64,000 nucleotides of DNA. It comes from Cyanophyceae cyanobacterium (lineage in GTDB: Bacteria > Cyanobacteriota > Cyanobacteriia > Cyanobacteriales > JBHJGN01). How positions within the stretch are numbered: position 1 is the stretch's first letter; each line of letters opens with the position of its first letter. The position numbers and the translations under genes were made by a program. This document shows positions 1-23,269 of the stretch, in pieces. The notes under the pieces are model-generated. The model saw only the letters and a list, made by a program, of their open reading frames with translations, did not search any database and was not told the DNA's origin. Location: NCBI GenBank assembly GCA_050331735.1, contig JBHJGN010000077.1, positions 5,062 through 69,061 on the forward strand. Direction: 5' to 3'.

Positions 1-871
1 GAAGTAGTGCGATGGTTGGTCCACTCCACAGCAGATAGTAAGCATTCTTGGCAAAGTCGCCCAGGAAGTATCCTTGGCTCAGCCACTCTTGAAGGCCATC
101 GTCCCAGAGCCAGTTCCCGGCTCCCGCAAAGTGATAGGGGGGATAATTCATCGCTAAATGTCTAGCCCAGAGGTAGTAAGCCACGACTGGAAGCAGCACC
201 AGTCCGGCGGTGATGCCAATCGGAATCAGCCGCTTAGCGGTGAGCTGCTGTTTGCGGTGCAGAATCGCAAAGAGGGCATAGAGCATCGGAATCCCGATCG
301 CTAAGCCAGGAAGCTTGGTCAATACCCCCCACGTACACACCAGAGCAGCCAATACCAGGTAGCGCCAGCGATCGCTTTGCAGATAAACCACGAACAGCCA
401 GAGATTGGTGGTGACGAGGGAAACCATCGCCGGGTCGGGCAGAAACGAGCGCTCGATGAAGATTCCACCCGGGAGTAAGGCCATTACCGCAGCGCTGGCT
501 AAGGCTCGTTCTACGTCCCAGACGCGGCGAGCGAGCTGGTAGAGGGCAAAAATTCCCCAGACTCCAAACACGGCAGCCACAGAGCGTCCGACCCAGTCGT
601 GTTGACCGACAACGGTGTACAGAAGAGCCGCGAGATAGCTAACGGTTTGGAATTCGCGTCCGTTATAGCTTGGTCCCGGTCCATCCCAGCTAATCTCTGG
701 GTAAAAGATATTCCAGCTATGGCGATAGAAATTATCCGCCATCATCGCCGTGCTGGTTTGCCGCCAGCTAAAGACATCAACGAAGGGCTGATCGATGCGG
801 TAAAATCTCAGCGCGGCGGCTAAGGCGAGAATGGCGAGCAAAAGATAGGGGGTGGAAGACTTAAATTTCAT
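1..871 (-). CDS. Glycosyltransferase family 39 (ArnT/PMT-like) integral membrane protein; N-terminal part only, gene runs off the window start
   Basis: Absent from the ORF track because it is open at the window edge. My reverse-strand translation from ATG 871..869 reads MKFKSSTPYLLLAILALAAALRFYRIDQPFVDVFSWRQTSTAMMADNFY... and stays hydrophobic and multi-pass, like ArnT/PMT_2 N-termini. GAGGAG lies just upstream. The ATG overlaps the TGA of the upstream ABC ATPase (ATGA). Confidence 0.65.
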   Translation of the reverse strand, partial: MKFKSSTPYLLLAILALAAALRFYRIDQPFVDVFSWRQTSTAMMADNFYRHSWNIFYPEISWDGPGPSYNGREFQTVSYLAALLYTVVGQHDWVGRSVAAVFGVWGIFALYQLARRVWDVERALASAAVMALLPGGIFIERSFLPDPAMVSLVTTNLWLFVVYLQSDRWRYLVLAALVCTWGVLTKLPGLAIGIPMLYALFAILHRKQQLTAKRLIPIGITAGLVLLPVVAYYLWARHLAMNYPPYHFAGAGNWLWDDGLQEWLSQGYFLGDFAKNAYYLLWSGPTIALL

Positions 872-2109
872 CGACTCCTCTCGTGTCCGTGCAATACGTT
901 GTTCATCCGCCACCGCAGCGGCGGACTCAACACTCCTTGAGCAGATGCTGGTGAGTTAACCTGCAACGAGTACACGTGCCAGTGGTAGTCGTAGGCATAA
1001 GCCCAATCAGTGCGGTACACTCCCACATCTACAAAGTATTGTCCGCCGTTTAGGTCTAGGCGCTCGAGGTGAAGCTGGAGCTGTCCAGTCTCTTGGAGGG
1101 GTGGAAGCGGTGTTTCCTCTGTATGGGTGTCAAAGCAAACCTGAGCGTCTGCACGGCTGATCGAGACGCTGAACCTTGCTGATTCGACTCGTTGAGCCGT
1201 TCGGTACTCAATTTCGATGCTCAGCGGAGCCCCGCTTGGCATGGCTGAAGGCAGCAGCCGCACATCCGTAATTTCGACTTCTAACGAGCCGAAGCGGTTA
1301 TCGTTGACGCGTAGTTCTACCCCAGAGCGAGTGAGCTGAGGTGGTCGGTTGGGGGTACGCTGTTGGGTTTGCGATCGCATTTCGCTCGCGTACTGCCCCA
1401 CCACTACCCGCGGTTCCCCCGAGGCGACGACCTGTCCCTGCTTGAGCCACAGAGCACGATCGCATAGCTTCTCGATTTGCCCGGTGTCGTGAGAAATCAA
1501 GACAATCGCACAGCCTTGTTCTTTGAGTTGGGAAATTCTGTCTAAGCACTTTGCCTGGAACGACAAATCTCCCACTGATAGAAACTCATCCACTAATAGG
1601 ACATCAGGTTCGGTGTGGACAGCAACCGAGAAAGCCAACCTCATCTGCATCCCGGTGCTATAAGTCCGCACTGGGTTATCAATAAACTGCTCTAATTCGG
1701 CAAACTCAACAATTGCTTCAAAGCGTCGCGCGACCTCTCGACGGTCCAACCCGGAAACGATAGCTGTCACAAACAGGTTTTCTCGTCCTGTCAGGTCGGG
1801 GTGAAAGCCAGCTCCCAAATCTAGCAGTGCTCCGATCCGTCCGCGAACCCTCACTCTCCCTACATCAGGACGACCAACGCCACCGATAAGCTGGAGTAGG
1901 GTGGATTTACCAGCTCCGTTGTGACCGATAATTCCTAGCATTTCGCCCGGAAAAACAGTCAAGCTAACATCGCGCAATGCCCAAAAACGTTCAACTGGTC
2001 TTAAGCGCTGAAACCCTGATAGAACTGTCTCCATAATCGTGCGCGGTTGCTCTGTCTGATAGCGGTTAAAGCGCTTGCCTAGTCCCTGGACAACAATAGC
2101 TTCGCGCAT
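868..2109 (-). CDS. Polysaccharide/O-antigen ABC exporter ATP-binding protein (Wzt/TagH-like) with C-terminal beta-rich extension
   Basis: ORF 868..2322 trimmed to ATG 2109 (MREAIVVQGLGKRF), 1 nt after the permease stop. Walker A GHNGAGKST, signature YSTGMQMRLAF, Walker B LLVDEFLSVGD. A roughly 150-aa C-terminal domain follows, as in Wzt proteins that bind the polymer terminus. Confidence 0.85.
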   Translation of the reverse strand: MREAIVVQGLGKRFNRYQTEQPRTIMETVLSGFQRLRPVERFWALRDVSLTVFPGEMLGIIGHNGAGKSTLLQLIGGVGRPDVGRVRVRGRIGALLDLGAGFHPDLTGRENLFVTAIVSGLDRREVARRFEAIVEFAELEQFIDNPVRTYSTGMQMRLAFSVAVHTEPDVLLVDEFLSVGDLSFQAKCLDRISQLKEQGCAIVLISHDTGQIEKLCDRALWLKQGQVVASGEPRVVVGQYASEMRSQTQQRTPNRPPQLTRSGVELRVNDNRFGSLEVEITDVRLLPSAMPSGAPLSIEIEYRTAQRVESARFSVSISRADAQVCFDTHTEETPLPPLQETGQLQLHLERLDLNGGQYFVDVGVYRTDWAYAYDYHWHVYSLQVNSPASAQGVLSPPLRWRMNNVLHGHERSR

Positions 2110-2110
2110 T

Positions 2111-2893
2111 CTACAGTTCCTCCACAAAGCGATCGCTCTGTTGCCGAAAAATATGCAGACCAACCGGAAGAAAGAGAGCGGTGAACCCGCTAATGATGAG
2201 CAGCGGCAGCCACTGGGGTTGGGTGCCACCGAGCAGAACATCTCGATAAGCGGTGACGATATGGACCATTGGGTTGAGAAAATAGAGAGACTGGTAGCCG
2301 CTGGGGACGTTACTGACGGCATAGAAAATGGGGGTGAGATAGAAAAATAGCTGTAGGAGTACCCCTAGAGTGTGCTGCGTATCGCGGAAGGTGACATTTA
2401 AAGCGGCCAGGATATAGGCGAGACTAACGGTAAAGGCGAATTGCAGGGCTTGCAGAATGGGCAGCAACAAGACCGTTGGCTTGAGGGGAATGCCGTCAAT
2501 CAGTAAGAAGACGATTAAAACGGGAAGTGCGAGCAGAAAGTGAATTAACCCGGTCGTGGTAATGACGATTGGCAAAATTTCGTTGGGAAACCCAGGCTGG
2601 CGAATCAAAGGGCGATTGGCAATAATCACTCCAGTAGCCTGAAAGAGTGAGTTTTGAAACCAAGTCCAGACTAGCAACCCCGTAAAGACAAAGGACGCGT
2701 ATTGTGGAATTTCTACCTTCAGCACCAACTGGAAGACAAACGCAAACACGGCCAACTGCAACAGCGGATTAATCAAAGTCCAGGCAACGCCAAGAACGGA
2801 GCGCTTATACAGCAGCTTCATGTCGCGGGCAACTAGTTCCCGCAGCAGATCGGTTAGATAGGGAAAACGCCACCGAGAGCGAGTGTGAACCAT
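2111..2893 (-). CDS. ABC-2 type polysaccharide exporter permease (Wzm-like)
   Basis: 260 aa with about 6 hydrophobic helices and an ABC-2 permease N-terminal pattern (LLRELVARDMKLLYKRSVLGVAWTLINPLL). Sits directly upstream of the ATPase. Confidence 0.85.
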   Translation of the reverse strand: MVHTRSRWRFPYLTDLLRELVARDMKLLYKRSVLGVAWTLINPLLQLAVFAFVFQLVLKVEIPQYASFVFTGLLVWTWFQNSLFQATGVIIANRPLIRQPGFPNEILPIVITTTGLIHFLLALPVLIVFLLIDGIPLKPTVLLLPILQALQFAFTVSLAYILAALNVTFRDTQHTLGVLLQLFFYLTPIFYAVSNVPSGYQSLYFLNPMVHIVTAYRDVLLGGTQPQWLPLLIISGFTALFLPVGLHIFRQQSDRFVEEL

Positions 2894-2906
2894 AGAGAAT
2901 TCTGAA

Positions 2907-5570
2907 CTAGTTGCTAGTTGCTAGATGGTCAACAGTCTGGCGAGCTTGACTTTCCTCTCCGGAGCGTTCCGCCACTGGAAGATAGGGGCGGCTCCGTCCT
3001 TCCCGTTTGACTCGTTGATAGGACTGCCACAGCGACCAAGGACCAGCCAAATTCCCGGTTATTTCTAGCCCCACCAGTGAGAGAGGATAGGTGCTCTGCC
3101 CCAGCAAGCGGTTTTTGATTTGCTCGGCATGGTAGATGGGCAACGCGACTAAAATCTGCACCAGTCCACGCCAGTCACCATCCAGAAGCCAAGTTGTTAG
3201 GTTATAGGAAACGTGTCCTTTGCTGTAGCCGTAGATCTGGCGGCGGAGGGATTCAAGTTGGCGACGGTGTTTGTGCCACACATAGGCCCGTGGCTCATAG
3301 ATAAGCGTGTAGCCAGCTTTGAGCACCTTGTAAAACAAATAGGTATCTTCGCCAACCCCAGACGGCATCCCCGGACCGAGGGTTTCTTCCATCAAACCAA
3401 TCTGGGGATGATGCAGCATACTAGCCCGAAAAGCGGCGTTAGCGGTCGCTCCTAAGCTCCAGGTTGGGATTGCTATTCGGGGGGAAGATTCGAGCCACTC
3501 TCCGTCTACTTCTTTCGGGTCAAAGCCACGCCCCAAACCGCCGTAGGTCTCGAAGAACTGCTGGGGAGAGGTTTCCAACTCAATCGGCAAGACGTGTCCG
3601 GTGACTACCATGACGTCTGGTCTGGCAAAGGGAGCGAGTAACTTTTCTAGCCAGTCGGGAGGCACCGTTACATCATCGTCAGTGGCAACGACAATATCGC
3701 CTGTACTGGCCACAAAGCCAGCATTTCGGGCATAGGCGAGTCCCTGACGTTCTTCGCTCACTAGCTTGACACCGGGAAATTCGGCGACCACGGGTGGCGT
3801 TAAGCCGGAGGCTGGATGGTTATCCACCACAATAATTTCCACCGGGCGAGAGGTGATTTGGGCCATCAGACAGCGCAGACAGTTCCGCAAATCGTCCGGT
3901 CGATCGAAGGTTGCTAAGTTAATCGTGATAGCAACGGGGTCAGGCAGTCGAGACGATGTCGCTGCTTGAGACTGAACGGAGAGTCGGTTTTGCAGCGCAG
4001 TCTGAGCCTGGGACCAACAAACAGCGGTGCTGAGGTCGCTATCCCGATAGAGTAATTGTGGGGCTACTGCGTTGACAAGCGCTTCCCGCAGACGGGCCGC
4101 GCTCACGGGTTGATATTGATGAACAATATCGGCACTTCCGAGAGGCTCGTCATTGCAAGTGATAAAAATTCTGACCTGGAGAGAGTCTGTTACGTCGGTT
4201 AGGGGGTGTATCGGCTGATTTAGCTCAACTCGGCGGACAGCCATCCCACTAGAACCACCTTCAGCGGGGCTTTGAGCGGAGACTGACGTGCCTGGTTCGA
4301 CCGGAGTCAGAAGACCAAAGGTTGTCGCAATGTGAGCCGCGTTGCGGCGGGCTTTGGGATAGCGTGTTAGCCCGATGAAGACACCTTTTAATTCAGCAAC
4401 GACTAAATCCCGTGGCAGTTGAGTGGGATGCTTGAGGGTGATCCACAGGCGGCGGAGATGCCAATACAGCAGCCACCACAGCCCTATTTTGACAAAGGAC
4501 AGGCGCTCCTCCCGGTAGGCTAAAGCTCCGCAGACGAAGTAAGCATACAGGCCAATCCCGTTGTTGGTAATCTGCGATCGCAGCCGAGTATACTCCCGTC
4601 GGTGGCGGTGGCGGATCACGGCCCTTGGTTCGTAAACGAGGGTATGCCCTCCTTTAAGAACTCGCAGGAACATCTCTAAATCTCCGCAGCCGTTGGTAAC
4701 GGTGCCAACATCTAGAGCCGGGTCAAAGACTCCAATCTCAGTAAAGACGCAGCGACGGTAAGCCATATTCGCCCCCGTCCCGAACTGTCCAGTCCCCAAG
4801 AGCTGCCAGGGCATCTGGCCTCGACCCACTCGATACCACTGCCGTTCAAAGCCGCGCCCAAAGCCGCCATACTTTTCAAAGAGAACCTGCGCTTCGGTTT
4901 CTAGCTCGTAGGGCACAACCAGCCCGGTGACGGCCATTACTTCAGGATTTTCGGCAAAAATCTGAGCAAGCGCCTTGACCCAGCCAGGATCGACTACGAC
5001 ATCATCATCGGTGTAGGCAATGATGTCGCCTTTAGCCTCTAGGATGGCGCGATTTCTGGCCCAGTTCAAACCCGGACGCGGTTCGCAAACGTAGCGCACT
5101 GCGGGGAAATTCGGCACCAGCTTCTTCGTAGCGTCGTTCGTTGGGGCGTTATCGACAACCAGGATGTCGAGATGCGGGTAATCTAATTGCTCTAGAGACT
5201 CCAAGCAGAGGGCCAAGTCTGAAGAGCGATCGCGAGTACAAACGGCAACGGTTACCAGCGGATAGTCCTCGGTGTATTCAGGAGGCGGAACCGTCCATAG
5301 ATTCTCCAGGCGCAGTTCTTCCGGCTTGAGTGCTGCCCCCAAACCGTTTTCCAAAAGTTGCTTAATAATGGTCCAGCTATGCTCGGCAAGAATCAGCTTT
5401 TTTAAAGTAGTGGCGAGGCAGCAACCATTCACAATGGGAGCTTTAACAGTGCCGACCGGAACGTTGTGGAGACGAACGAGACCCTGTACACCCATATATC
5501 CGTCTAGATTCTCAATCGTCACCAGCGGACGGCTCAGTTCAATATCAACAATTTTGAGCGGATAAAGCAT
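2907..5570 (-). CDS. Bifunctional glycosyltransferase with two GT2 (GT-A) modules
   Basis: 887 aa. Module 1: VTVAVCTRDRSSDL, ILVVDNAPTND, AYTDDDVVVDPGW. Module 2: AITINLATFDRPDDL, IIVVDNHPASG, VATDDDVTVPPDW. Confidence 0.8.
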   Translation of the reverse strand: MLYPLKIVDIELSRPLVTIENLDGYMGVQGLVRLHNVPVGTVKAPIVNGCCLATTLKKLILAEHSWTIIKQLLENGLGAALKPEELRLENLWTVPPPEYTEDYPLVTVAVCTRDRSSDLALCLESLEQLDYPHLDILVVDNAPTNDATKKLVPNFPAVRYVCEPRPGLNWARNRAILEAKGDIIAYTDDDVVVDPGWVKALAQIFAENPEVMAVTGLVVPYELETEAQVLFEKYGGFGRGFERQWYRVGRGQMPWQLLGTGQFGTGANMAYRRCVFTEIGVFDPALDVGTVTNGCGDLEMFLRVLKGGHTLVYEPRAVIRHRHRREYTRLRSQITNNGIGLYAYFVCGALAYREERLSFVKIGLWWLLYWHLRRLWITLKHPTQLPRDLVVAELKGVFIGLTRYPKARRNAAHIATTFGLLTPVEPGTSVSAQSPAEGGSSGMAVRRVELNQPIHPLTDVTDSLQVRIFITCNDEPLGSADIVHQYQPVSAARLREALVNAVAPQLLYRDSDLSTAVCWSQAQTALQNRLSVQSQAATSSRLPDPVAITINLATFDRPDDLRNCLRCLMAQITSRPVEIIVVDNHPASGLTPPVVAEFPGVKLVSEERQGLAYARNAGFVASTGDIVVATDDDVTVPPDWLEKLLAPFARPDVMVVTGHVLPIELETSPQQFFETYGGLGRGFDPKEVDGEWLESSPRIAIPTWSLGATANAAFRASMLHHPQIGLMEETLGPGMPSGVGEDTYLFYKVLKAGYTLIYEPRAYVWHKHRRQLESLRRQIYGYSKGHVSYNLTTWLLDGDWRGLVQILVALPIYHAEQIKNRLLGQSTYPLSLVGLEITGNLAGPWSLWQSYQRVKREGRSRPYLPVAERSGEESQARQTVDHLATSN

Positions 5571-12695: not shown

Positions 12696-13100
12696 ATGAC
12701 AGCAGCGATGGCGACCAAGCGAGTGTTTATCTGTGGTTCGGCGCTCAGAGGTCAGCCCGATCATCAAAATCTTCAGTCAGCAAAATTTATTAAGCCAACT
12801 AAAACGCTGCCGCAGTATCGCCTCCACGCCGCCGAAAACGGGTGGCATCCAGCCATTTATGCTGTAGCAGAGGGCGGCGTTAGTATTCCGGGCGAAATTT
12901 ATGAAATGACCGACGAGCAGTACGACTACCTGCTTGCCAACGAGCCTCCTCATATGTACCCCGACACCGTTAATCTGGAGTCAGGAGAACAGGCGATCGC
13001 CATGCTCTACCCCCAAGAACTAGTCGAAAAACATCGCTGGCCCGATATTTCCGATATTGGTGGCTGGGCAGCCTATAAACTTTCACAGCAGGAAGAGTAA
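12696..13100 (+). CDS. Gamma-glutamylcyclotransferase-fold protein resembling the allophanate hydrolase C-terminal domain
   Basis: 134 aa. RVFICGSALRGQPDHQNL...YRLHA...EGGVSIPGEIYEM follows the pattern I recall for AH C-terminal/GGCT-like proteins. Starts 6 nt after the gntR stop, so it is probably co-transcribed. Confidence 0.45.
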   Translation: MTAAMATKRVFICGSALRGQPDHQNLQSAKFIKPTKTLPQYRLHAAENGWHPAIYAVAEGGVSIPGEIYEMTDEQYDYLLANEPPHMYPDTVNLESGEQAIAMLYPQELVEKHRWPDISDIGGWAAYKLSQQEE

Positions 13101-13214
13101 AATTATGTTCCTAGTTAACTCAAAGTTCTGCCGAACTCAGGTTCCGGCGGCTGCTTTGAGCAAGCTCGATGGTTTCAGTTCGCCGTCTACTACATTTCCT
13201 ATTTACTTGAAAAA

Positions 13215-14525
13215 TTACAGAGCTTCTACCAACTTTTCTTGAGATTTCTTGACTTTTGAACACCAGTTTTTGTATCTATGCAAAATTTCTGCGTAGGAAA
13301 CAGTGGACTCATAGAGAGCCTCAAATAGTGGTGGGAAAAAACGTTTGGGAAAGAATCGATGCAGAACTGTAGCGACACGCTCTTTAATAATAAACTCAAT
13401 AAACAATGGTTTAGATAAAGGAAGAGTATTACTACTAAGCTCGCTCGCCGCGTGAGTATCAGCCAAACGGCAAGTCGTAAATTGTTCTAGCACCAGCTTT
13501 AAGTCGTCGGCATATTGATTCAAAAGCTGGTTGAGAACAACCACATCCTCAAGAGCGCAATTGCACCCTTGACCAAGAGCGGGGGATACAGCATGAGCAG
13601 CATCGCCAATGAGTAAGGCGCTATCGGAATAGTGATAGTGGCTACAGCGAATGGTTAACGTAGTGGCAATAGGTCTTTTGAGAAAAGCTGCCGCTTCTGA
13701 TTCAGGCATGAGTTGACCGACTTGGGGAAAATTTTGCTCAAAGAATTGCAGAACTTCTGCTTCGCTCTTAAGAGCAGTGACTCGTTGATCTCCTCTGGGA
13801 AAGCGAATAATCCCGCTCATTGTGCCGTCAGCTTGATGCAGCAGAATGACTCCGATGCTGCCATCTAATCTCCAGGCATGAATCTTACTCGGTTCAAGGG
13901 CAATCTGGAGTTTTTCATTGCTCCCAGAGGGCAGGAAAACTGATTTGTAGTCATCAGAAACGTATTTTTGTTCCAATTCAAATAACTTAGTATTTAAAAA
14001 ATGTCTTCTCACAACAGAACGTGCTCCATCTGCTCCCACTAAGAGGTCATAAGCAATAGATAAATATTCTGGTTCTGTTGAGGCTAGATTTTGAAAATTT
14101 GCTGTCTTCGCGTCTAAGTCTATATGGGTACAGGAGCATTGAAAATATAAATTTAAGCGGGAATTGGCAAACTTTTGTAGGGTATTTAATAAGACTTTTG
14201 TAAAGTCAGTGCGATCGAGGGCGAATAAGGGCTTATTTCTGATAACAACTATCTGCTTCCCATTTTGCTGATGAACAATATTCCCCCACATCTCTACACT
14301 GATCGCTAAAACGGCTTCTTCTAAACCTGGTATTTTCCGTAAGGCGTTCATTCCTCTGCCGCTTAAACTAATCGGAAAAGTTCGAGACTTAGAAACGGAT
14401 ACAGTTCTCGGATCGGGGCGACGCTCGTATATATCTATCTGATATTTGTTATCGCGGGCCAGTAAATAGTGAGCGAGAAGAAGGCCGCTTGGTCCGGCAC
14501 CAACAATGACAACTTTTTTAGACAT
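13215..14525 (-). CDS. Class A FAD-dependent monooxygenase (kynurenine 3-monooxygenase/UbiH-like)
   Basis: Start moved to ATG 14525 (MSKKVVIVGAGPSGL dinucleotide fold); the track offers TTG at 14552. FAD fingerprint GDAAHAVSPALGQGCNCALED. Confidence 0.75.
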   Translation of the reverse strand: MSKKVVIVGAGPSGLLLAHYLLARDNKYQIDIYERRPDPRTVSVSKSRTFPISLSGRGMNALRKIPGLEEAVLAISVEMWGNIVHQQNGKQIVVIRNKPLFALDRTDFTKVLLNTLQKFANSRLNLYFQCSCTHIDLDAKTANFQNLASTEPEYLSIAYDLLVGADGARSVVRRHFLNTKLFELEQKYVSDDYKSVFLPSGSNEKLQIALEPSKIHAWRLDGSIGVILLHQADGTMSGIIRFPRGDQRVTALKSEAEVLQFFEQNFPQVGQLMPESEAAAFLKRPIATTLTIRCSHYHYSDSALLIGDAAHAVSPALGQGCNCALEDVVVLNQLLNQYADDLKLVLEQFTTCRLADTHAASELSSNTLPLSKPLFIEFIIKERVATVLHRFFPKRFFPPLFEALYESTVSYAEILHRYKNWCSKVKKSQEKLVEAL

Positions 14526-14565
14526 ATCCAGCGTTTCTAATGGTTTAAGCAAAATATTTTATTGT

Positions 14566-14597
14566 TAGTGGTTAAGCTTGTTTTTAACTAACCACTA
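14566..14597 (-). terminator. Stem-loop TAGTGGTTA-N14-TAACCACTA between the DUF4278 gene and the monooxygenase gene
   Basis: Perfect 9-bp inverted repeat in an AT-rich context, but with no clean U-run. It could be a terminator or a regulatory hairpin. Confidence 0.3.
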
Positions 14598-14706
14598 CCC
14601 CAAGCTCAACTTCTCAAAGTGCAACTAATGAAGTAGATTGGATTTTACTTGGGTTTTCTTGAGTTAGAACAATGTATGTGATTGATTGTCATAAGGTATA
14701 CAGGAT

Positions 14707-14889
14707 TCATGGTAATAATTTGATGTACTCTCTTCCTCGATACTTAAGAGTAAAACCGTTTTTAAGCGTTGCATTCCTCGTCTTTCCAATCTGATAAGAG
14801 ACTCCCCGATACTTGCCATTAATCGTTTTATCGGTTGCTGAGCGGGTTAAGTTAGATTGGTAAGAAATACCGCGATAAATGAGCTGCAT
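14707..14889 (-). CDS. Small DUF4278-type protein
   Basis: Start moved to ATG 14889, preceded by AAGGAGAAAAAG. MQLIYRGISYQ...KYRGVSYQ...KYRGREY has the repeated YRG-x-SY pattern of cyanobacterial DUF4278 proteins. Confidence 0.65.
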   Translation of the reverse strand: MQLIYRGISYQSNLTRSATDKTINGKYRGVSYQIGKTRNATLKNGFTLKYRGREYIKLLP

Positions 14890-14983
14890 CTTTTTCTCCT
14901 TAAATTTTCGTGTTGTTTTTTTAATGGCTACCAAGCGAACTAACTGATGCACTTATAGCTAAAACGATGGCAGGTTAAAGAGT

Positions 14984-17014
14984 TCATCTAAAGGTTGTCG
15001 GAACAGAAACAGTAGACACCCGATTTTGAGCAAAATGTTCTAATAACATGCGGTGATAAAATACATAGCTACCACCCACTTTTTTCATCAACAGTCGTTC
15101 TGAGGCGTAGTCAAGAAAGTGAGCTAGATTCCTAGGAATTAAACCCTTAGCCCATAATATAAGTCGTAGGTTGACGTGTTGAATGCAGGCCATTCCGCCT
15201 CCAAAAAGTAGCCCTAAAATCAGTCCCCAACTGATTACAGAAGTGATTGACTTTAATCCTTTAGGAAATAAACTAATCGGAAAAGGAAACAAAATGATTG
15301 GGATCAAAATTAGCCAACTAGCTAATGCGACGATCGCGGCATTCGTGACCGATTTCCGAATACCTTGGTTAGGGATAGTTTTTGTCTCTATTTCTGAGCC
15401 TCTTAGCCCACGGATTAATCCGATAATTAGTCCTAAAATTACTCCTAAAAATAGTCCAAATACTATTATTGTTAAGCCATTGCTTGGCTCTTTCCAAGTC
15501 AGGTAACACCACACTACACTAATCGGGGACAAAATTCGACTCCAGCTTAGTCCATCCCTTAAACCATTAAGCAGATCTTTTCGCGTTTTTTTCCAAGGCC
15601 ACGTCAAAGTTTCAAAGGTTTTTATTTCTGCTTTATCGCTTCCAAACCATAACAAAACAAGTCCCCATGTTACTCCGTTGATCGCTAATACTTTAAAAAG
15701 GTTAATTTTTTCGTTATGCAAGTCTAAAACATAGCCTAGTAACAAGATTAATAGAACAACCAGCATCCCCATCAGTATACTTCCCACTCGATAAAGTCTT
15801 CTTTGGAGATTAGGCTCCAACCAATAGGGCTGCATTCTCTCAATTAAAAAGACAGATTGAGCTCCCTGAGACATCCGCTGTGCCAGCCAAGTTAGCCAGT
15901 ATATTGACCTATCTTTCTGGTATTGCTGAACTCCTTTACGCTTGAACATCCGATCAATATAAGTATCGAACAGGTGATGACGGCGTTCTTCACTTGAGCA
16001 AAACTGCTGTAATAGATCTTCTACTGACCAATCTTGATAAGCAACACTCATAATACTGAGAATTAGAGGAGTTTGGGCAAAACGTTCTAATTCTCGATCT
16101 TGCTGTAATAGCGTTCTTAAGCCAGCGAGGGAATCACCTGCTTCTGCTAAAAAACGATCTACTTGTTTTTTTGAAAGAGGTTTAATACAGATAGCACTGC
16201 TAAGTTGCAAACGCGCTGTCAGTGCCTCATAATCCTCGACTCGGCTACAAATCACCATCTCAGTAATATTATGAGTTGTGATAAATTGATTTAAAGCTCT
16301 AACGCAAGCGTTGCGCTTTCCAGCTTGTACTTCATCTAATCCATCAAGAAATAGAATTAGCTGTTCCTGTTCAATCCAAGGTTCGCTTAGCGTTTTGGGA
16401 ACTTGATATTTATCTTTTAGTTCTTCAATTAGCCATTTTTCTATGGGTTGCTGCTTGTATTCCCAAGAAGATAAGTTAAACACTACGGGGATAGGCTTCG
16501 TTAAATCTTTTTCGGTTTGAGCGATCGCTTTTTTGGCTAGCTGTAATAAAGCAATCGTTTTTCCTGAACCAGGCTCTCCTAAAATTAATAGGGTTTTACC
16601 TTGTCCGGTTTGATTCAAAATATCTGTTGATTTAAGTTGGTCAAAAGACTTATCCAAGTCTATTGCTATATCTTCAACGCCTGTAAAAGGTCTAATTACC
16701 GCACTTGAATTTTTTTCCCAGTCGAGGTTAATGACATTATTTCTATAGAGAGAAGAGTTGAGAAAACCCTCGATCCAAGACTCTTTAACTTTGCGCAATA
16801 AGGTGATTCGCTGTCTATATTCGTGTTGAGTTAATACTTGGCGCACTACTGGAGTTTGACCTAACCAGTCCAGATCATTCGTGACGCGATCGCGATATTG
16901 CTCGCGACTGAGAATGGTAATGTTGTGATTGTGAACAGTGTTATTGTCACCAACCGCAAAGCCTTTTGCTGAAGCTTCAAACCTTTGATTGTATTTAGCA
17001 CTACGTTCAACCAT
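14984..17014 (-). CDS. NACHT-family STAND NTPase (NLR-like) with N-terminal short signalling motif and about 6 transmembrane helices
   Basis: Start moved to ATG 17014 (MVERSAKYN) with GGAG 8 nt upstream. Walker A LILGEPGSGKT, Walker B LILFLDGLDE. Hydrophobic helices span ORF residues ~417-620. C-terminal YVFYHRMLLEHFAQ resembles the NACHT-associated YxFxHxxxQEYFAA helix. No TPR/WD40/LRR repeats. Confidence 0.8.
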   Translation of the reverse strand: MVERSAKYNQRFEASAKGFAVGDNNTVHNHNITILSREQYRDRVTNDLDWLGQTPVVRQVLTQHEYRQRITLLRKVKESWIEGFLNSSLYRNNVINLDWEKNSSAVIRPFTGVEDIAIDLDKSFDQLKSTDILNQTGQGKTLLILGEPGSGKTIALLQLAKKAIAQTEKDLTKPIPVVFNLSSWEYKQQPIEKWLIEELKDKYQVPKTLSEPWIEQEQLILFLDGLDEVQAGKRNACVRALNQFITTHNITEMVICSRVEDYEALTARLQLSSAICIKPLSKKQVDRFLAEAGDSLAGLRTLLQQDRELERFAQTPLILSIMSVAYQDWSVEDLLQQFCSSEERRHHLFDTYIDRMFKRKGVQQYQKDRSIYWLTWLAQRMSQGAQSVFLIERMQPYWLEPNLQRRLYRVGSILMGMLVVLLILLLGYVLDLHNEKINLFKVLAINGVTWGLVLLWFGSDKAEIKTFETLTWPWKKTRKDLLNGLRDGLSWSRILSPISVVWCYLTWKEPSNGLTIIVFGLFLGVILGLIIGLIRGLRGSEIETKTIPNQGIRKSVTNAAIVALASWLILIPIILFPFPISLFPKGLKSITSVISWGLILGLLFGGGMACIQHVNLRLILWAKGLIPRNLAHFLDYASERLLMKKVGGSYVFYHRMLLEHFAQNRVSTVSVPTTFR

Positions 17015-17030
17015 TTTAAGTCTCCAGCAG

Positions 17031-17402
17031 CTAAGAGCCAAATGTATTTGTTTGAGTGTTGCGATCGCCGAATTGACCCCCTTTAACTTCCCCTTGAAAC
17101 AGCATGTTATATTTACCTGCTGCTGTTTCTTTAGGATCTAACTGTTTTAGTATTTCCTGAGCTTTTTCAACAATTTTCTCGTCTCGATCGGCACCAACCT
17201 CAGTTAATTTCTTTTTGAGTGGAGCTTCATAGGTGTCAGGGTCTTTTTCGTATTCTTCTAAAACCATTTCTGCTTTTGGTTCGCCATCAAATTTATGCTT
17301 AATTAAAGTTTTTAAGCCTTGATAAGCATCTGGAGCAACATCTCTAGCCGCTTTTACTGCTCCAGCAACCAGTGCAGCAAGAATTAAAGAAATTGGTTCC
17401 AT
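17031..17402 (-). CDS. Small Bell-like protein with N-terminal hydrophobic helix and C-terminal amyloid-signalling-type motif
   Basis: 123 aa with a GAGGA RBS. The N-terminus MEPISLILAALVAGAVKAARDVAPDAYQGLKTL is followed by a charged helical middle. The last ~26 aa (GKYNMLFQGEVKGGQFGDRNTQTNTF) match the N-terminus of the next gene. Confidence 0.6.
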   Translation of the reverse strand: MEPISLILAALVAGAVKAARDVAPDAYQGLKTLIKHKFDGEPKAEMVLEEYEKDPDTYEAPLKKKLTEVGADRDEKIVEKAQEILKQLDPKETAAGKYNMLFQGEVKGGQFGDRNTQTNTFGS

Positions 17403-17584
17403 TACTCATTATTCCTCTGTTAGTTCAATTTTTGGAGTTGAATTATTCGCTAGATTCAACCCGAACGATAATTTTAAATCTGCAACAAATTTAAAGAAGT
17501 AAAGGAATAGGAGGTTTTCTGATTTAATTACACGCCATATCTGCTATCTGCGTTTAATATTAATTTGATTCTTTATCCCTCGAT

Positions 17585-17640
17585 CTCATAAAGCTCATTC
17601 CGAAGCTCTTGAGAAATCTCATCTAAAAACTCATAGAAAA
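17585..17640 (-). promoter_or_regulatory. CTCAT (ATGAG on the coding strand) array, copy 1, upstream of the Bell/NACHT pair
   Basis: CTCAT at 17585, 17594, 17618 and 17630 (spacings 9, 24, 12). The block AATCTCATCTAAAAACTCATAGAAAAG is nearly identical to one at 24929-24951. Confidence 0.4.
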
Positions 17641-17647
17641 GTTGGTC

Positions 17648-20600
17648 TTAAACAAAGATCGATTTATAAATGCGGTTCTGAACTTTTAAAGTTCCCTGTT
17701 GCTTAACGACTAGCCCCGATAACAGCAGTTCTCTTTCCTCGGGGCTATTATCTGAAACTATTGCACCTCGGTGTAAAATTTGTCGATAGAGTTCTAGTAG
17801 TCGGACGGACTGTTTGCTCTTGAGCAGGCGATCGCGGATCGTTCTCAAATGCTCGGGTTCATCCTGATATTCCCAATTCTCGACGATCTTGGTTCGCACC
17901 AAGTTTTCGAGCCACTCGGCTTCTTGGTTAGCAGGGATTGAAGAGGAAGCATCGCGGATAAGTTTGCAGAGCTTTTGGGTTAAAAAGGGCTGTCCGTTCG
18001 TCCAGGCAAACACTTCTTTGAGCAGCGTTTGTGGATTATTCACTTTGTCCATTAATCCTTGCAGCAACGGTTGCGCTTCATGCTGTTTAAAGCCCTCTAG
18101 TTGAATCGCCTGACCGATGTTAAAGGGGGTTCTTTGATAGTCGGTTGCTAAATCGCTCGGAGTAGCGACACCAAAAAAAGCAAAGGTTAGGCGTCGATAC
18201 TCTGGATCGATACTGCGCTGATTGTAGCAGGAGCGTATCAGCGCCAAAAAGTCATTAACGGGAAAATTCAGGCTTAAGAGGCTATCAAGTTCATCGATAA
18301 AAATAACTAGATTGGGAAGAGCATTATCTTGGCACTCGACTTCAACTAACAAAATTTCTCGAATAAACTGACTCAATTTTTGTACTGGAGAAAGATCTTC
18401 TTGCTCTCGCCACCAGGTTTTTAAATCGACTGTCCTCAGCAAACCAAAGCCATACCATAGCTCTACGGCTAATCCCTTATACCATTGTTCGGGCGTAACG
18501 CTTTCGCTGCCAATCCGAGTCAGATCGATCGCTCCGCAGCTAAACCCTTCGTGCTGGAGGTGACGCATCATGCGCACCATCAAGCTTGACTTGCCCATCT
18601 GCCGAGGATTGAGAACATGACAAAACTCTCCTCGTTTTAACGCTTTATAAAGACAGCGATCCGCCGAGCGTACCACATAAGTCGGGGCATCCATCGGCAA
18701 ACTTCCCCCCACTTGATAGTCAAACTCAGAGGATTGTTCGGCACTTCTGAGCAGTTCATTTTCAAACATGAGTTCTGCTTGAGTCGCTTGGAGAATTTCC
18801 AAGGTTTGCGATAGCTCTTGAGTGCGTTCTGAAACTCGTTGTTCGAGGGTGCGATTGTAGCCTGCTAGCTGTTTGTAGAGACGGGCATTTTCGATAGAGA
18901 TAGCGGCTTGAGCGGAAAGAATCTTTAAAACTTCTACGCGATCGCTAGTAAAGGCACCGCTGGTTAAATTATTTTCTAAATAGAGAATCCCGATCAGTTG
19001 ATCTTGATGAAGCAAAGGAGTACAAAGAATCGATTTGGGGTGAGTCGCCACTATGTAAGGATCGCCGCTAAACTGTTTTGCCTCAGTCGCGTTGTTTAGC
19101 ACAACGTTTTTGTGGGTGCGGGCAACATAGTGAACGATGGCAACGGATAGAATTGGTGCTTGGCAATCGTCTACAGAGTCAATGGCAATTGATTGCAGAA
19201 CAGCCACCTCATCAGCCTCTACTGCTCCTCCCGCTTCAATTGTTAAGTGATCCTCGTTTGCTAGAATCAGAAAGCTTTTTTGAGCGCCAGCATTCTCAAT
19301 GACAGTTTTCATCAAATTTTTGAGCAATTGGCTCAGCGCGATCTCCCGCGAAATTGTCTGCGAAGCTTTGATAACGCTGGCTACATCTAATCCTGCCTGG
19401 GTCAAGGTTGAAGATAAGCGGTTGGTCGATTCTGAGGCTAAATGTGGGTATCGTTGCTCTAGGTGCTTCACCTTGGCGTGTGCGCCCCATCTTTGGTAGG
19501 CATAATGAGCATCCTGTATGTAGTGGCGAGCAACATGATTCTCCTGAGCTAGGTAAAATTGACCAGCCAGTTCGCAGGCAAGAGCTTCTTCATTAAGATA
19601 GTTGTTTTCCTGAGCCAGCATAATAGCCTGGTCATACTGCTCTCGGGCTTCTTGAACTTGCCCCAACACTCGGCAACGTTCTGCCTCGACTAAATGAAGC
19701 TTGTGTAAAAAATTCATGGGAGCACTTCGCGCCCACGTTCGTATCTGCTTTTGATTACTGGCTACTTTTGCTAAAATTTGTTTCTGTTCAACGGCTAAAG
19801 ACTGAGGGTAGACCGCCAGTCGTGCTAAAGAGTCATAAAAGTAGAAGAGGGGACAAAGCAGCGTTCCTGTAGAGGTGTCTACATAGGGTTCAGCACAAAC
19901 AGCATTTTCAAACGCTTCCTGATACTGATTAAACAGGTAGCAGAGAATTAGTTTGTTGAGATACAGATAGTAAATAGTTGAGCGTTGATTTCTTTGCACA
20001 TAGAGAGGAAGTTCCTGTTCTTCGTTATAAACCTCCCCGACTAGACGGTAGGGTTCGTCTTCTCCAATCAGGTTCAGAACAATTTGATGGATCAGAGTGT
20101 CGTTTCTGAGCTGATTAATGGTACTGCTATAGGTAGTGATTTCCTGCTCTAATTCAGGTAGGGGACGAGCAGCGCTGAAATAGGAAAGATAACAATAGAT
20201 TTGGATAGATAGAGCGGCATGTTCAAGATCTCCCGTGGCTAAACCACTGTGATAGGCAGCTAATAAGGCGCTAAACGTCTGGCTAATGTGGAATTTCCCA
20301 GGAATTGTAAAATAGGTGGTCACAAAGAGGGTCATCGCTTTGAGTTCTTTCGCGTTTAACCGCTCTAACAGACGCAAAGCAAGCTGACCGAATTGGTAGC
20401 CAAGCTCAAAGTTTGCGGCTCTACAGAGAATCAATCCGTAATTCGCATAGGCATGGGTATGAGCAACAGCGTTGCCATAGTGAAGAGCCAAATTAATTTG
20501 GGCAAAGATAATGAGCGGCAACAGGTGAGGACGGGCTATATAGGCGGCAGGGCAGAGAGTGAGTAGGATACGGGTAGCGGCAATTTTGGTCGGATCGCTC

Positions 20601-23269
20601 ATCAAAGGCGCATCCAGTAAGTCTTGAGGCTGTTTTTGTGCCAAGGATTGTTGCAGCGTCTCGAACCCCAAGCTCACGTCAGATTCAGAAGGCTGCGTCG
20701 GTAAATTCACGCCGAGGATTTTCAGCACCGAGATGCCAAGCTGGAGGGCTTCGGTAAATTTTTTCTGGGCTTTGAGCGCTTGGATTTCGATTTCGTGAAC
20801 TTTCACCTGCTCTAAGTCAGATTGAGCCTGTTGCCGTACCGCCTGAACTAACTGCTCCATCCGCCTAAAATCGTGGTTGAGATAGGCTGCCTCTGCGGCG
20901 GCGGTGTGTAGAGCTAGCGATAGGTCGTATTGCTGCCAGTTTGCTTCAAGTAGTTCTAAGCCGACGGTAAAGTAGGTGAAGGCAGATTGATGGGCGGCTG
21001 ATGCTTTCGCGATCGCTCCTGCCTGGAGATTTAAGCGGGCGAGTTGCTCTCGCTCTGGACGGTGGGAGAGCAGTGACCGTCCCTGGTTGAGCTGATTAAC
21101 AATCGTAAAGGGGTCCGATTCTAGGGGGGTGTGTTTGAGCAACCGTTGACCAATCTGCCAATGCACAGCCTGGGTTTCTGCCTGGGGAATGAGGCCATAG
21201 ACCACCTGCTGGATGCGATCGTGGGCAAACTTGTATCCGGCTGATTTTGATAAACCGTTTACCTCCAGCGACCTTAGCGTGTAGCTGTCGTTCAGGGGTA
21301 GAATATATCCCTCGGCGATCGCTGCCTCTAAATCTACTGCTACTTCCCGAGCCGTTTTTTCAGAGATAATCGCTAATCGGTCTAAAGTAAATCGGTTCCC
21401 CAGGCAGGCGGCTAATTTCAACGCGGCCTGAGTTGGTGGCGTTAGCTGTTTGACCTTCTCCGCCATCAATTGGGCGACATTATCCGCAATCGGCTGGGTT
21501 TGAATCTGCTTCAAATCCCACCGCCATTGCCCTCGTTCGTCATCAAATTCGATCAGCGATCGCTCGTGTAGAGATTTCAAAAACTCGCTGACAAAAAAAG
21601 GATTGCCCCCCGTTTTTGCCTGTAACATCGTTGCCAGCGGACTGGCGGTGGTGGAGTCAACCCGAAAAGTATCGCTGAGCAGTTGGCGAGTATGGGTTTG
21701 GGTTAGGGGCAACAGCGAAATTTGATTAACGGTGATAGAAGACTCGATTTCCCTTAAAGTGAGCAGGAGCGAACTCTCGCTTACTTCGTTGTCTCGATAG
21801 GCTCCAATCAGCAGCAAGTATTGGCTATTTCCAGCCGTGAATAACCGTTGAATAATTTCAAGCGTGGCTCGATCTGCCCACTGCAAATCGTCTAAGAAGA
21901 TGACGAGGGGATGTTCCGGTTGAGTAAAAACTTTAACAAAATCTTGCCATACCCGATGAAAACGATTTTGCGCCTCTGTCGGCGCAAGGTTTGGGAGGGC
22001 TGCTTGGGAACCGATAATCAATTCTAAGTCGGGCAGAACATCGAGCATCACCTGTCCATTTGCCCCCAAAGCCACCAACAGTTTTTCCCGCCATTCTGCA
22101 ATCTTGGGTTTACTTTCAGTCAGTAGCTGTTGGATTAATGACTGAAACGCTTGAATTAGGGGAGCATAGGGAATGTTGCGCTGTAGCCGCTCAGATTTCC
22201 CAGAGATAAAGTAGCCTCGCTGACGGGTCAGGGGCTGATACACCTCCTGCACCAGAGCGGATTTACCCACCCCTGAATGTCCGCAAATCACCATCATTTC
22301 GCTAGCGCCTTGGCTCACGCGATCGCAGGCAGCTAATAAGCGAGCCAACTCTGCTTCTCTTCCGTAGAGCTTTGGGGAAATTTGAAACCGATCGGAAATA
22401 TCCACTTGACCTAATGGAAAGGAAGCAATTTGCCCTTGGGTTTGCCACTGATGCCAACAGTGTTCCAAATCTGCCTTGAGTCCAAAAGCCGATTGATAGC
22501 GATCTTCGGCGTTTTTGGCCATCAGCTTGAGCACAATGTCTGAAATTGCCGGGGGAAGGTTGGCATTATGTTGATGGGGAGGAAGCGGAGATTTGGCAAT
22601 ATGGCCGTGAATTAATTCCAGAACATCCTCTGTAGGAAAGGGCAACCGACCAGTGAGCAGTTCATAAAAGGTTACCCCGAGAGAGTAAAAATCCGTTCGC
22701 TCATCGATTGCCCGATTCATCCGCCCCGTCTGCTCTGGGGAAATATACGTTAATGTTCCCCTTAATACCTTTGGATGACGAGTTGAGTTTTTCGGGGTCA
22801 GTAGGAGCGAGCTACCGAAGTCGATCAGTTTGACCTGCTCAGTCGCGGGACTCCAAACAATATTGGACGGGTTGATATCGTTGTGGACAACGTGCTGTTG
22901 ATGCACTTGGGCAAGAATACGAGCAAGTTGAATGGCAAGCGGGAGAAACTCCGTGACAGAGAGAGGGCGCTCTTCAATCACCCGATCGAGAGCTTGCCCC
23001 CCAAAATCCTCTAAAACCAAGAGCCAGCGGTCCTGCTCATTCTCTAAACCATAGACTTGTACTACCCCTGGCAAGTTAAGTTGATTGAGTTTTTTGGTGG
23101 TTTCATACTCCTGTCTAAACCAAGCAATTTCCTCGGGTGTCGGGTAAGGCTGTTTGAGAAATTTGAGAATGACGGGTTGACAATCTGCTAATCGTCGTCC
23201 GCGATAGACTTGCGAGCTAGCGCTTTCGTGAAGCTGTTCGATAATTTGGTAGTCTAAAACACAAATCAC
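17648..23269 (-). CDS. Multidomain signalling NTPase: Ser/Thr protein kinase + AAA_16-type STAND ATPase + TPR-like helical array + GAF + coiled coil + C-terminal AAA-like (AAA_35-type) NTPase
   Basis: GTG start with GGAG 6 nt upstream. Kinase motifs [18 protein letters not shown] (aa ~6-270). P-loop GHSGVGKS with [12 protein letters not shown]. Long helical repeat region. GAF ([19 protein letters not shown]...ILYLENN...ISIENARLY). Coiled coil. Last 359 aa: [34 protein letters not shown]. Confidence 0.8.

Follow-up and report, generated by a model that had tools for sequence, protein, structure and literature searches.

Can the switch of an NLR (NOD-like receptor) be threaded through a membrane? 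The usual picture of an NLR is that of a soluble receptor in the cytosol, with a C-terminal repeat array as its sensor. The window analyzed here, a stretch of 64,000 nucleotides from a Cyanophyceae cyanobacterium (contig JBHJGN010000077.1), carries on its reverse strand a gene (14984..17014) for an NLR-like NACHT protein with a strongly hydrophobic region. A sequence-only reading had taken residues ~417 to 620 of its open reading frame (ORF; 15182-15793, reverse strand) as about six transmembrane (TM) helices standing where a C-terminal repeat sensor would be expected. The predicted membrane block, of ~220 residues, is instead an insertion inside the NACHT winged-helix domain, and it is composed of three tandem TM hairpins of ~72 residues each, as judged from the comparisons described below. 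The listed frame (14984..17041, reverse strand) comprises 685 codons and reaches a TTG at 17041; the ATG at ORF residue 10, nine codons inside, yields a 676-aa product identical to a protein deposited from a “Cyanophyceae cyanobacterium” metagenome-assembled genome (MAG) (P0001). Residue numbers below are those of the 685-aa ORF.

The ORF product is a NACHT NTPase, a member of the NACHT clade of the STAND NTPases with an NLR-like fold. The nucleotide-binding domain (residues 150 to 300; 16142..16594, reverse strand) matches Pfam PF05729 with an E value of 2e-10 and a score of 41.1 bits, above the curated cutoff of 26.7, and contains the Walker A motif GEPGSGKT (residues 155 to 162; 16556-16579) and the Walker B motif LILFLDGLDE (residues 228 to 237; 16331-16360). 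NCBIfam and PADLOC returned weak NACHT/STAND-type matches only. The best matches of the AlphaFold2 model in a Foldseek search against the PDB were NLRP5, NLRC4, NOD2, NLRP9, and NLRP3, with E values of 1e-5 to 1e-4; no NLR was returned when the PDB was searched by sequence, whether the query was the whole protein, the family profile, or a profile lacking the TM block or restricted to the winged helix. Every string quoted in the sequence-only reading, namely, both Walker motifs, four helices, two loops, and YVFYHRMLLEHFAQ at residues 659 to 672, is present in the ORF.

The count of about six membrane helices following the NACHT core was borne out. In a 19-residue Kyte-Doolittle scan, five segments reach the strict cutoff of 1.6, at residues 421 to 439 (2.78), 446 to 466 (1.7), 525 to 543 (3.07), 569 to 587 (2.53), and 601 to 620 (2.0), and a sixth, weaker hydrophobic segment lies near 498 to 512. 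A confident AlphaFold2 model, built from 85 family sequences (mean predicted local distance difference test [pLDDT] score, 84.8; predicted template modeling score, 0.80), contains six long helices at 411 to 439, 448 to 469, 487 to 515, 522 to 546, 559 to 584, and 599 to 631, which are followed by a helix (639 to 648), a beta-hairpin (652 to 661), and another helix (664 to 672). The block was thus located correctly, and its originally proposed limits of ~417 to 620 were slightly too narrow, the model extending it to ~411 to 631. The same layout, with Walker A, ~265 aa, the hydrophobic segments, and then an [FYW]x[FY]xH motif, is seen again in almost every one of the 120 best homologs, a few truncated entries excepted, and is therefore not a chance arrangement. 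Pfam, NCBIfam, and PADLOC searches of the TM block found nothing beyond DUF5337 (E = 0.9) and a pyrophosphatase (E = 0.98).

The site of the block was determined by splicing residues 413 to 629 out of the query and aligning the remainder across the junction. In tblastn searches of plasmid records, the spliced query matched TM-family genes as two pieces across ~1650 nt and ordinary cyanobacterial NACHT genes as one piece of ~990 nt, with 92 to 98% of the spliced query covered. BLASTP comparison with two TM-less cyanobacterial proteins, a Tolypothrix NACHT protein with weak HEAT-repeat matches and a Calothrix NACHT-NCH2 protein, yielded in each case a single high-scoring segment pair (HSP) through the junction (E = 6e-14 and 1e-18). 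Within the same HSP as the deleted junction, YVFYHRMLLEHFAQ aligns onto YQFAHLTLQEFFAA and YSFSHLTFHEYFTA of the TM-less proteins; at the HSP ends, LLMKKVGGS-YVFYHRMLLEHFAQ lies over LLLAIDGGERYQFAHLTLQEFFAA in one alignment and LLIERARGIYSFSHLTFHEYFTA in the other, and the matched end of the comparators is the GLL..Y.F.H...QEFFAA element. Because the TM-deleted protein aligns continuously onto the conserved end of the winged-helix domain, the block lies inside that domain, between its first helices and the strand-helix unit bearing the conserved histidine H663. The terminal YVFYHRMLLEHFAQ helix, far from being unrelated to the NACHT winged-helix region, is part of it, as the sequence-only reading had proposed. 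The placement of the block in the position of a C-terminal sensor has to be revised. The protein stops 13 residues past the winged-helix domain, with neither a second helical domain nor repeats; the absence of a TPR, WD40, or LRR array, which had also been noted, agrees with the lack of Pfam repeat matches. Canonical NLRs (NLRC4, NOD2, and NLRP3) and the cyanobacterial NACHT-HEAT and NACHT-NCH2 proteins share with the window protein the nucleotide-binding domain, helical domain 1, the winged-helix fold, and the YxFxH...E.FA element. Their winged-helix domain, however, is uninterrupted, and helical domain 2 and repeats come after it, whereas in the window protein, ~220 membrane residues split this domain and the chain ends ~13 residues beyond it.

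The insertion thus divides the fold into two parts. Helical domain 1 and the first winged-helix half (residues 301 to 410; 15812..16141, reverse strand), containing QTPLILSIM and WLTWLAQRM...VFLIERMQP, precede the block, and the second winged-helix half, IPRNLAHFLDYASERLLMKKVGGSYVFYHRMLLEHFAQ (residues 632 to 672; 15026..15148, reverse strand), with the conserved H663, follows it and is delineated by the BLASTP continuity, the beta-hairpin and helix of the model, and near-invariant columns. A pre-NACHT helical region (residues 46 to 99; 16745..16906, reverse strand) is conserved throughout the family as well as in Streptomyces relatives.

The internal repetition of the block is evident from profile comparisons. 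When the helix pairs at residues 411 to 486, 487 to 558, and 559 to 635 were compared with hhalign, they matched each other with probabilities of 92 to 96% (scores of 35 to 44 over 51 to 54 columns), far above reversed-profile controls of the same composition (6 to 24%, scores of 17 to 20, 1 to 18 columns), and the insert is therefore interpreted as a triplicated hairpin. A hidden Markov model of the unit, built from the same family, detected three units in 107 of 120 relatives. The first hairpin (residues 411 to 486; 15584..15811, reverse strand) ends in the conserved inner loop EIKTFETLTWPWKK, the second (487 to 558; 15368..15583, reverse strand) in the inner loop EIETKTIPNQG, and the third (559 to 631; 15149..15367, reverse strand) in GGGMACIQHVNLRLIL. 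Gly-rich helices with a GLxxGL pattern are frequent within the block.

Comparison of the loops across 85 family members revealed a sharp asymmetry between the two sides of the predicted bundle. The inner loops, after helices 2, 4, and 6, are of fixed lengths (17 to 19, 12, and 14 residues, respectively), are rich in K and R, and carry the motifs EIxxFExLxWxW, EIExKTxPNQGIxxS, and CIQHxxLR, in which P557, N558, Q559, G560, I561, and S564 of the second loop and H622, L625, and R626 of the third are invariant. The outer loops vary from 1 to 23, 1 to 91, and 3 to 79 residues and are not conserved. Because the NACHT domain is necessarily cytoplasmic, the number of helices is even, and the positively charged loops are expected on the inner side of the membrane (the positive-inside rule), we infer that both termini are cytoplasmic, so that the conserved loops would face the cytoplasm and the variable loops the outside.

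Proteins of this kind have been catalogued previously. Among the five sensor types distinguished for bacterial NACHT proteins by Kibby et al. (bioRxiv 10.1101/2022.07.19.500537), TM regions are classed as sensors, and Table S1 of that work assigns a module denoted “68TM-wHTH” (“6-8TM-wHTH” below) to four clade 5 actinobacterial proteins; the same table places the TM-less comparator WP_155539558.1 in clade 5 as well. The “6-8TM-wHTH” proteins share with the window protein the succession of a NACHT NTPase, multiple TM helices, and a terminal winged helix, which in the window protein takes the form of six helices at 411 to 631 and a winged-helix tail at 632 to 672. In two Streptomyces plasmid proteins of the same layout, with accessions other than those of Table S1 (L086 and L087), the TM block interrupts the winged-helix domain at the same position and is followed by the same tail. 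For example, BLASTP aligned residues 81 to 466 of the window protein onto 75 to 493 of L087, into the first two TM helices (E = 4e-22), and residues 632 to 670 onto 701 to 739, the PW..-FL...GYxFxH tail (E = 2e-5). By layout and homology, the window protein would thus be assigned to the “6-8TM-wHTH” type. The four catalogued proteins differ in being actinobacterial and in bearing N-terminal ACYC, REase, and HTH domains, whereas the window protein is one of a large group that has radiated in cyanobacteria and has CHAT or amyloid-motif N termini; furthermore, neither the three-hairpin repeat nor the conserved inner-loop motifs are described in the paper of Kibby et al. The Streptomyces goshikiensis plasmid gene (L087:2602-6072; the other gene lies at L086:2710-4488) encodes a seventh helix and WD40-like repeats after the tail, demonstrating that one protein can combine the TM insertion with a repeat array.

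The extent of the cyanobacterial radiation is considerable. A whole-protein search retrieved 2306 homologs at E < 1e-5, and in the best 120 of these, mostly 83 to 99% of the query was covered, with insert lengths between 182 and 384 residues. With the TM block alone as the query, 709 representatives were found among 1.84 billion cluster representatives. No free-standing TM module was seen in that set: each short hit examined is either truncated or has the winged-helix tail at its end, so that these hits look like pieces of NACHT-TM genes. When the insert and tail together were searched against a single genome for each species, at least 521 loci encoding both the TM block and the winged-helix tail were detected. 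The best 80 of these loci are cyanobacterial, except for a few MAGs labeled only “uncultured bacterium,” and include Nostocales, Chroococcales, Pleurocapsales, Oscillatoriales-type, and Leptolyngbya-type lineages. Thus, the TM-inserted NACHT design is not rare but common in cyanobacteria. Some members carry a further addition. In 12 Nostocales-type members, a DUF3365 domain (PF11845) follows the winged helix, between two extra hydrophobic segments; these carriers are found among P0012 to P0025 (Sphaerospermopsis, Dolichospermum, and others) and at L006, L007, L010, and L011, and the added domain would be a putative sensor placed outside the cytoplasm.

In contrast to the constant membrane block, the N terminus is variable. 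A CHAT protease domain is present at the N terminus of 64 of the 120 top homologs, and ~40 of the remaining ones begin with short Gly/Asn/Gln-rich motifs, such as NISGGNVQGFIQENHGTVTQNFI. The window protein carries at residues 10 to 44 (16910..17014, reverse strand) a motif, KYNQRFEASAKGFAVGDNNTVHNHN, that resembles bacterial amyloid signaling sequences (BASS); pLDDT is below 50 for residues 1 to 39, as expected of a disordered region. About 16 to 19 nt upstream lies a collinear gene for a 123-aa Bell/HetE-N-like protein (17031..17402, reverse strand), with an N-terminal hydrophobic helix, MEPISLILAALVAGAV, and a C-terminal motif, KYNMLFQGEVKGGQFGDRNTQTNTF (~17034-17120, reverse strand). Local alignment of KYNMLFQGEVKGGQFGDRNTQTNTF with KYNQRFEASAKGFAVGDNNTVHNHN gave a score of 56 (z = 9.5 against 200 shuffles), both motifs conforming to the pattern KYN..F....KG...GD.NT..N, which supports the pairing with a Bell-like gene that had been suggested. 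The partner is 67% identical to the partner gene product at L003, the locus of relative P0004, which carries PF20701 HetE-N. Bell/HetE-N genes lie upstream at L001, at L003, and in the window, and the Microcystis relative P0066 shows the same arrangement of Bell and NACHT-TM genes.

Neighbors were surveyed at 74 loci from species-representative genomes in which the gene is complete; the N terminus is long at 43 of them and short at 31. A neighbor with a matching motif was found at 22 of the 31 short-N-terminus loci. In eight of these, the partners are Bell-like and match at the C terminus (z of 7 to 12.6); in five, they are CHAT-domain proteins; and in the other nine, proteins of ~150 residues match at the N terminus (z of 4.8 to 20) and end in a hydrophobic tail. 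With motif-matched neighbors this frequent, putative motif pairing with a membrane NACHT protein is routine in cyanobacteria, and the TM-NACHT protein can no longer be regarded as atypical among BASS-paired NLRs. The CHAT partners, in which the matching motif accompanies a protease rather than a Bell domain, come in two arrangements: at L013, L016, and L017 (about 1-3000), an upstream CHAT protease carries a C-terminal motif, IQIHGGVKGFVQDNSGTVNQNI, that matches the N terminus of the NACHT-TM protein (z of 12 to 13), and at L019 and L023, the CHAT protein has the matching motif in its interior. The small partners of the third group (L021, L022, L043, L046, L060, L062, L066, L075, and L084) are ~145 to 150 aa long, differ in type from Bell, bear the motif at the N terminus and a tail ending in PWLGVAVKSLLLLT, and are encoded by genes that end about 12 to 16 nt before the NLR gene.

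Dyrka et al. 2020 defined the Bell/BASS pairs with NLRs composed of NB-ARC or NACHT domains plus TPR or WD repeats, and transmembrane segments are never mentioned there; in the Bab/Agp system (Ibarlosa et al. 2024), a Bell-type protein and an amyloid-motif partner confer abortive-infection phage defense in E. coli. The window locus shares with both a small collinear Bell/HetE-N-like gene upstream, the match between its C-terminal motif and the N terminus of the adjacent NACHT protein, and the short gap. It differs from the Bell/BASS pairs in that its NLR is predicted to be membrane-integral and lacks repeats.

How might such a protein act? In other NLRs, the winged-helix histidine contacts bound ADP and stabilizes the off state, and upon activation, the winged helix rotates away from the nucleotide-binding domain. 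Because the TM bundle is spliced into the winged-helix domain, it is well placed to relay a signal to this lock, and a rearrangement in the membrane could be passed straight to it. A cue associated with the membrane or arising outside the cytoplasm would act as the trigger, for example, phage-induced membrane damage or a ligand bound to the variable outer loops. Once freed, the NACHT domain would oligomerize within the membrane plane and bring the N-terminal motifs together, and these would seed an amyloid-like fold that would be templated onto the matching motif of the Bell-like protein. The N-terminal domain of the Bell-like protein would then attack the membrane, and the infected cell would be killed in an abortive infection. 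In other relatives, the same constant sensor and switch would apparently be combined with different effectors, through either a CHAT domain or a motif plus partner. As a whole, this scenario of a membrane-integral NLR that relays a signal through its TM bundle to motif-templated killing is, in our judgment, probably correct, by a modest measure; its architectural part is nearly certain, and the role of the membrane segment in sensing, although plausible, has roughly even chances. The more specific proposal that the three-hairpin repeat is a pattern-recognition module, in which a change of membrane state or a ligand of the outer loops is mechanically relayed to the ADP-locking histidine, is offered as a tentative one.

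Several considerations weigh against this scenario. The topology is predicted from hydropathy, the positive-inside rule, and AlphaFold; the outer loops of the window protein are short (6 to 14 residues), leaving little surface for an external ligand; and the variability of these loops may reflect relaxed constraint rather than diversification. The role of H663 would be carried over by analogy with other NLRs. On the partner side, the Pfam HetE-N match of the window protein itself is weak (E = 0.18), and the two motifs are alike in sequence, their amyloid nature being putative. A literature search for experimental work on any TM-inserted NACHT protein found none.

The main rival explanation is that the TM block is merely an anchor. 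It would hold the NLR at the plasma or thylakoid membrane, so that the site of templating would be the one at which the membrane-targeting partner acts, and sensing would be performed elsewhere, for instance, by the NACHT domain and flanking helical regions or through a guarded host factor. The shortness of the outer loops would be expected under this explanation, as would the lack of any recognizable ligand-binding domain in family-library searches of the protein and the N-terminal hydrophobic helix of the partner, which is of the membrane-acting Bell type. However, a tether needs neither six helices nor invariant inner-loop motifs (PNQG and CIQH..LR) with strictly fixed loop lengths, and a terminal helix would serve as well as an insertion into the regulatory winged-helix domain. 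Moreover, the block was never seen without the winged-helix tail among the short matches examined, and it occupies the same site in the Streptomyces relatives. We therefore consider a pure anchor unlikely. Still more improbable is that the insert itself is the killer, with 18 or more TM helices of neighboring subunits forming a pore upon NACHT oligomerization. The frequency of GLxxGL helices would fit such a pore, and in some relatives, both a CHAT domain and an obvious partner are lacking. Nevertheless, the family already possesses variable effector or adaptor modules at the N terminus, and the constant part of NLRs is normally the sensor and switch. The assignment of TM regions to the sensors by Kibby et al. 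(bioRxiv 10.1101/2022.07.19.500537) also argues against the pore.

A trivial explanation has to be considered alongside these, namely, that a repeat domain is concealed by a frameshift or truncation or that the hydrophobic stretch is a chance or mistranslated frame. The closest relatives (P0002 to P0007, 69 to 77% identical) are indeed ~50 to 55 aa longer and end in a zinc ribbon, CPNC...FC..CG, which is absent from the window copy, where the protein ends in VPTTFR (14984-15050). However, what would have been lost is a zinc ribbon and not a repeat array, and no remnant of a TPR, WD40, or LRR array or of a zinc ribbon was found downstream of the ORF in any frame, which disposes of the hidden repeat domain. 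Many relatives stop at the same point, right after the winged-helix motif; an identical protein has been deposited; and the TM block is kept in hundreds of genomes. An artifact is so remote that we regard it as excluded. A membrane-integral NLR that would relay its signal through the winged-helix domain is the explanation favored here.

The genomic surroundings of the gene were also inspected. The NACHT-TM and Bell-like genes lie in a low-GC (guanine-plus-cytosine) island (window positions 13100-17900) together with an FAD-monooxygenase gene and an 81-aa DUF4278 ORF (14707-14952, reverse strand; E = 1.6e-12), the latter directly downstream of the NACHT-TM gene. The GC content of the island, 0.36 to 0.42, is below that of both flanks (~0.47 to 0.52), which suggests a horizontally acquired block. 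Adjoining the Bell-like gene is a gene (17648-23269, reverse strand) for a 1873-aa protein with Ser/Thr kinase, AAA_16, GAF, and C-terminal AAA_35 domains; because this is another large STAND-like signaling protein, the region may be a conflict-system cluster. On the Microcystis wesenbergii chromosome (L001; 1554-2960 and 9886-10076), the neighbors of the Bell and NACHT-TM pair include PIN, phage-lysozyme-domain, transposase, and CHAT-nSTAND1 genes, a defense-island-like context.

The window protein is an ordinary member of its family and in itself a modest surprise; the family is the more interesting experimental target. What is new here is descriptive and concerns the precise position of the insertion, the triplication of the hairpin, the inner-loop motifs (PNQG and CIQH..LR), and the frequency of matched-motif partners. 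The site, the hairpin, and the inner-loop motifs provide handles for mutagenesis and structural study of a membrane-controlled NACHT switch. If the hairpins do relay membrane state or ligand binding to the histidine lock, this would be an activation route without a counterpart in characterized NLRs, and these proteins would serve cyanobacteria as receptors that monitor “membrane integrity” or the envelope and set off CHAT proteases or amyloid-templated killers. Set against the soluble receptors with terminal repeat arrays, these proteins represent a common cyanobacterial alternative, in which the switch domain would be threaded through the membrane and its output directed to a protease or a putative amyloid-templated killer.

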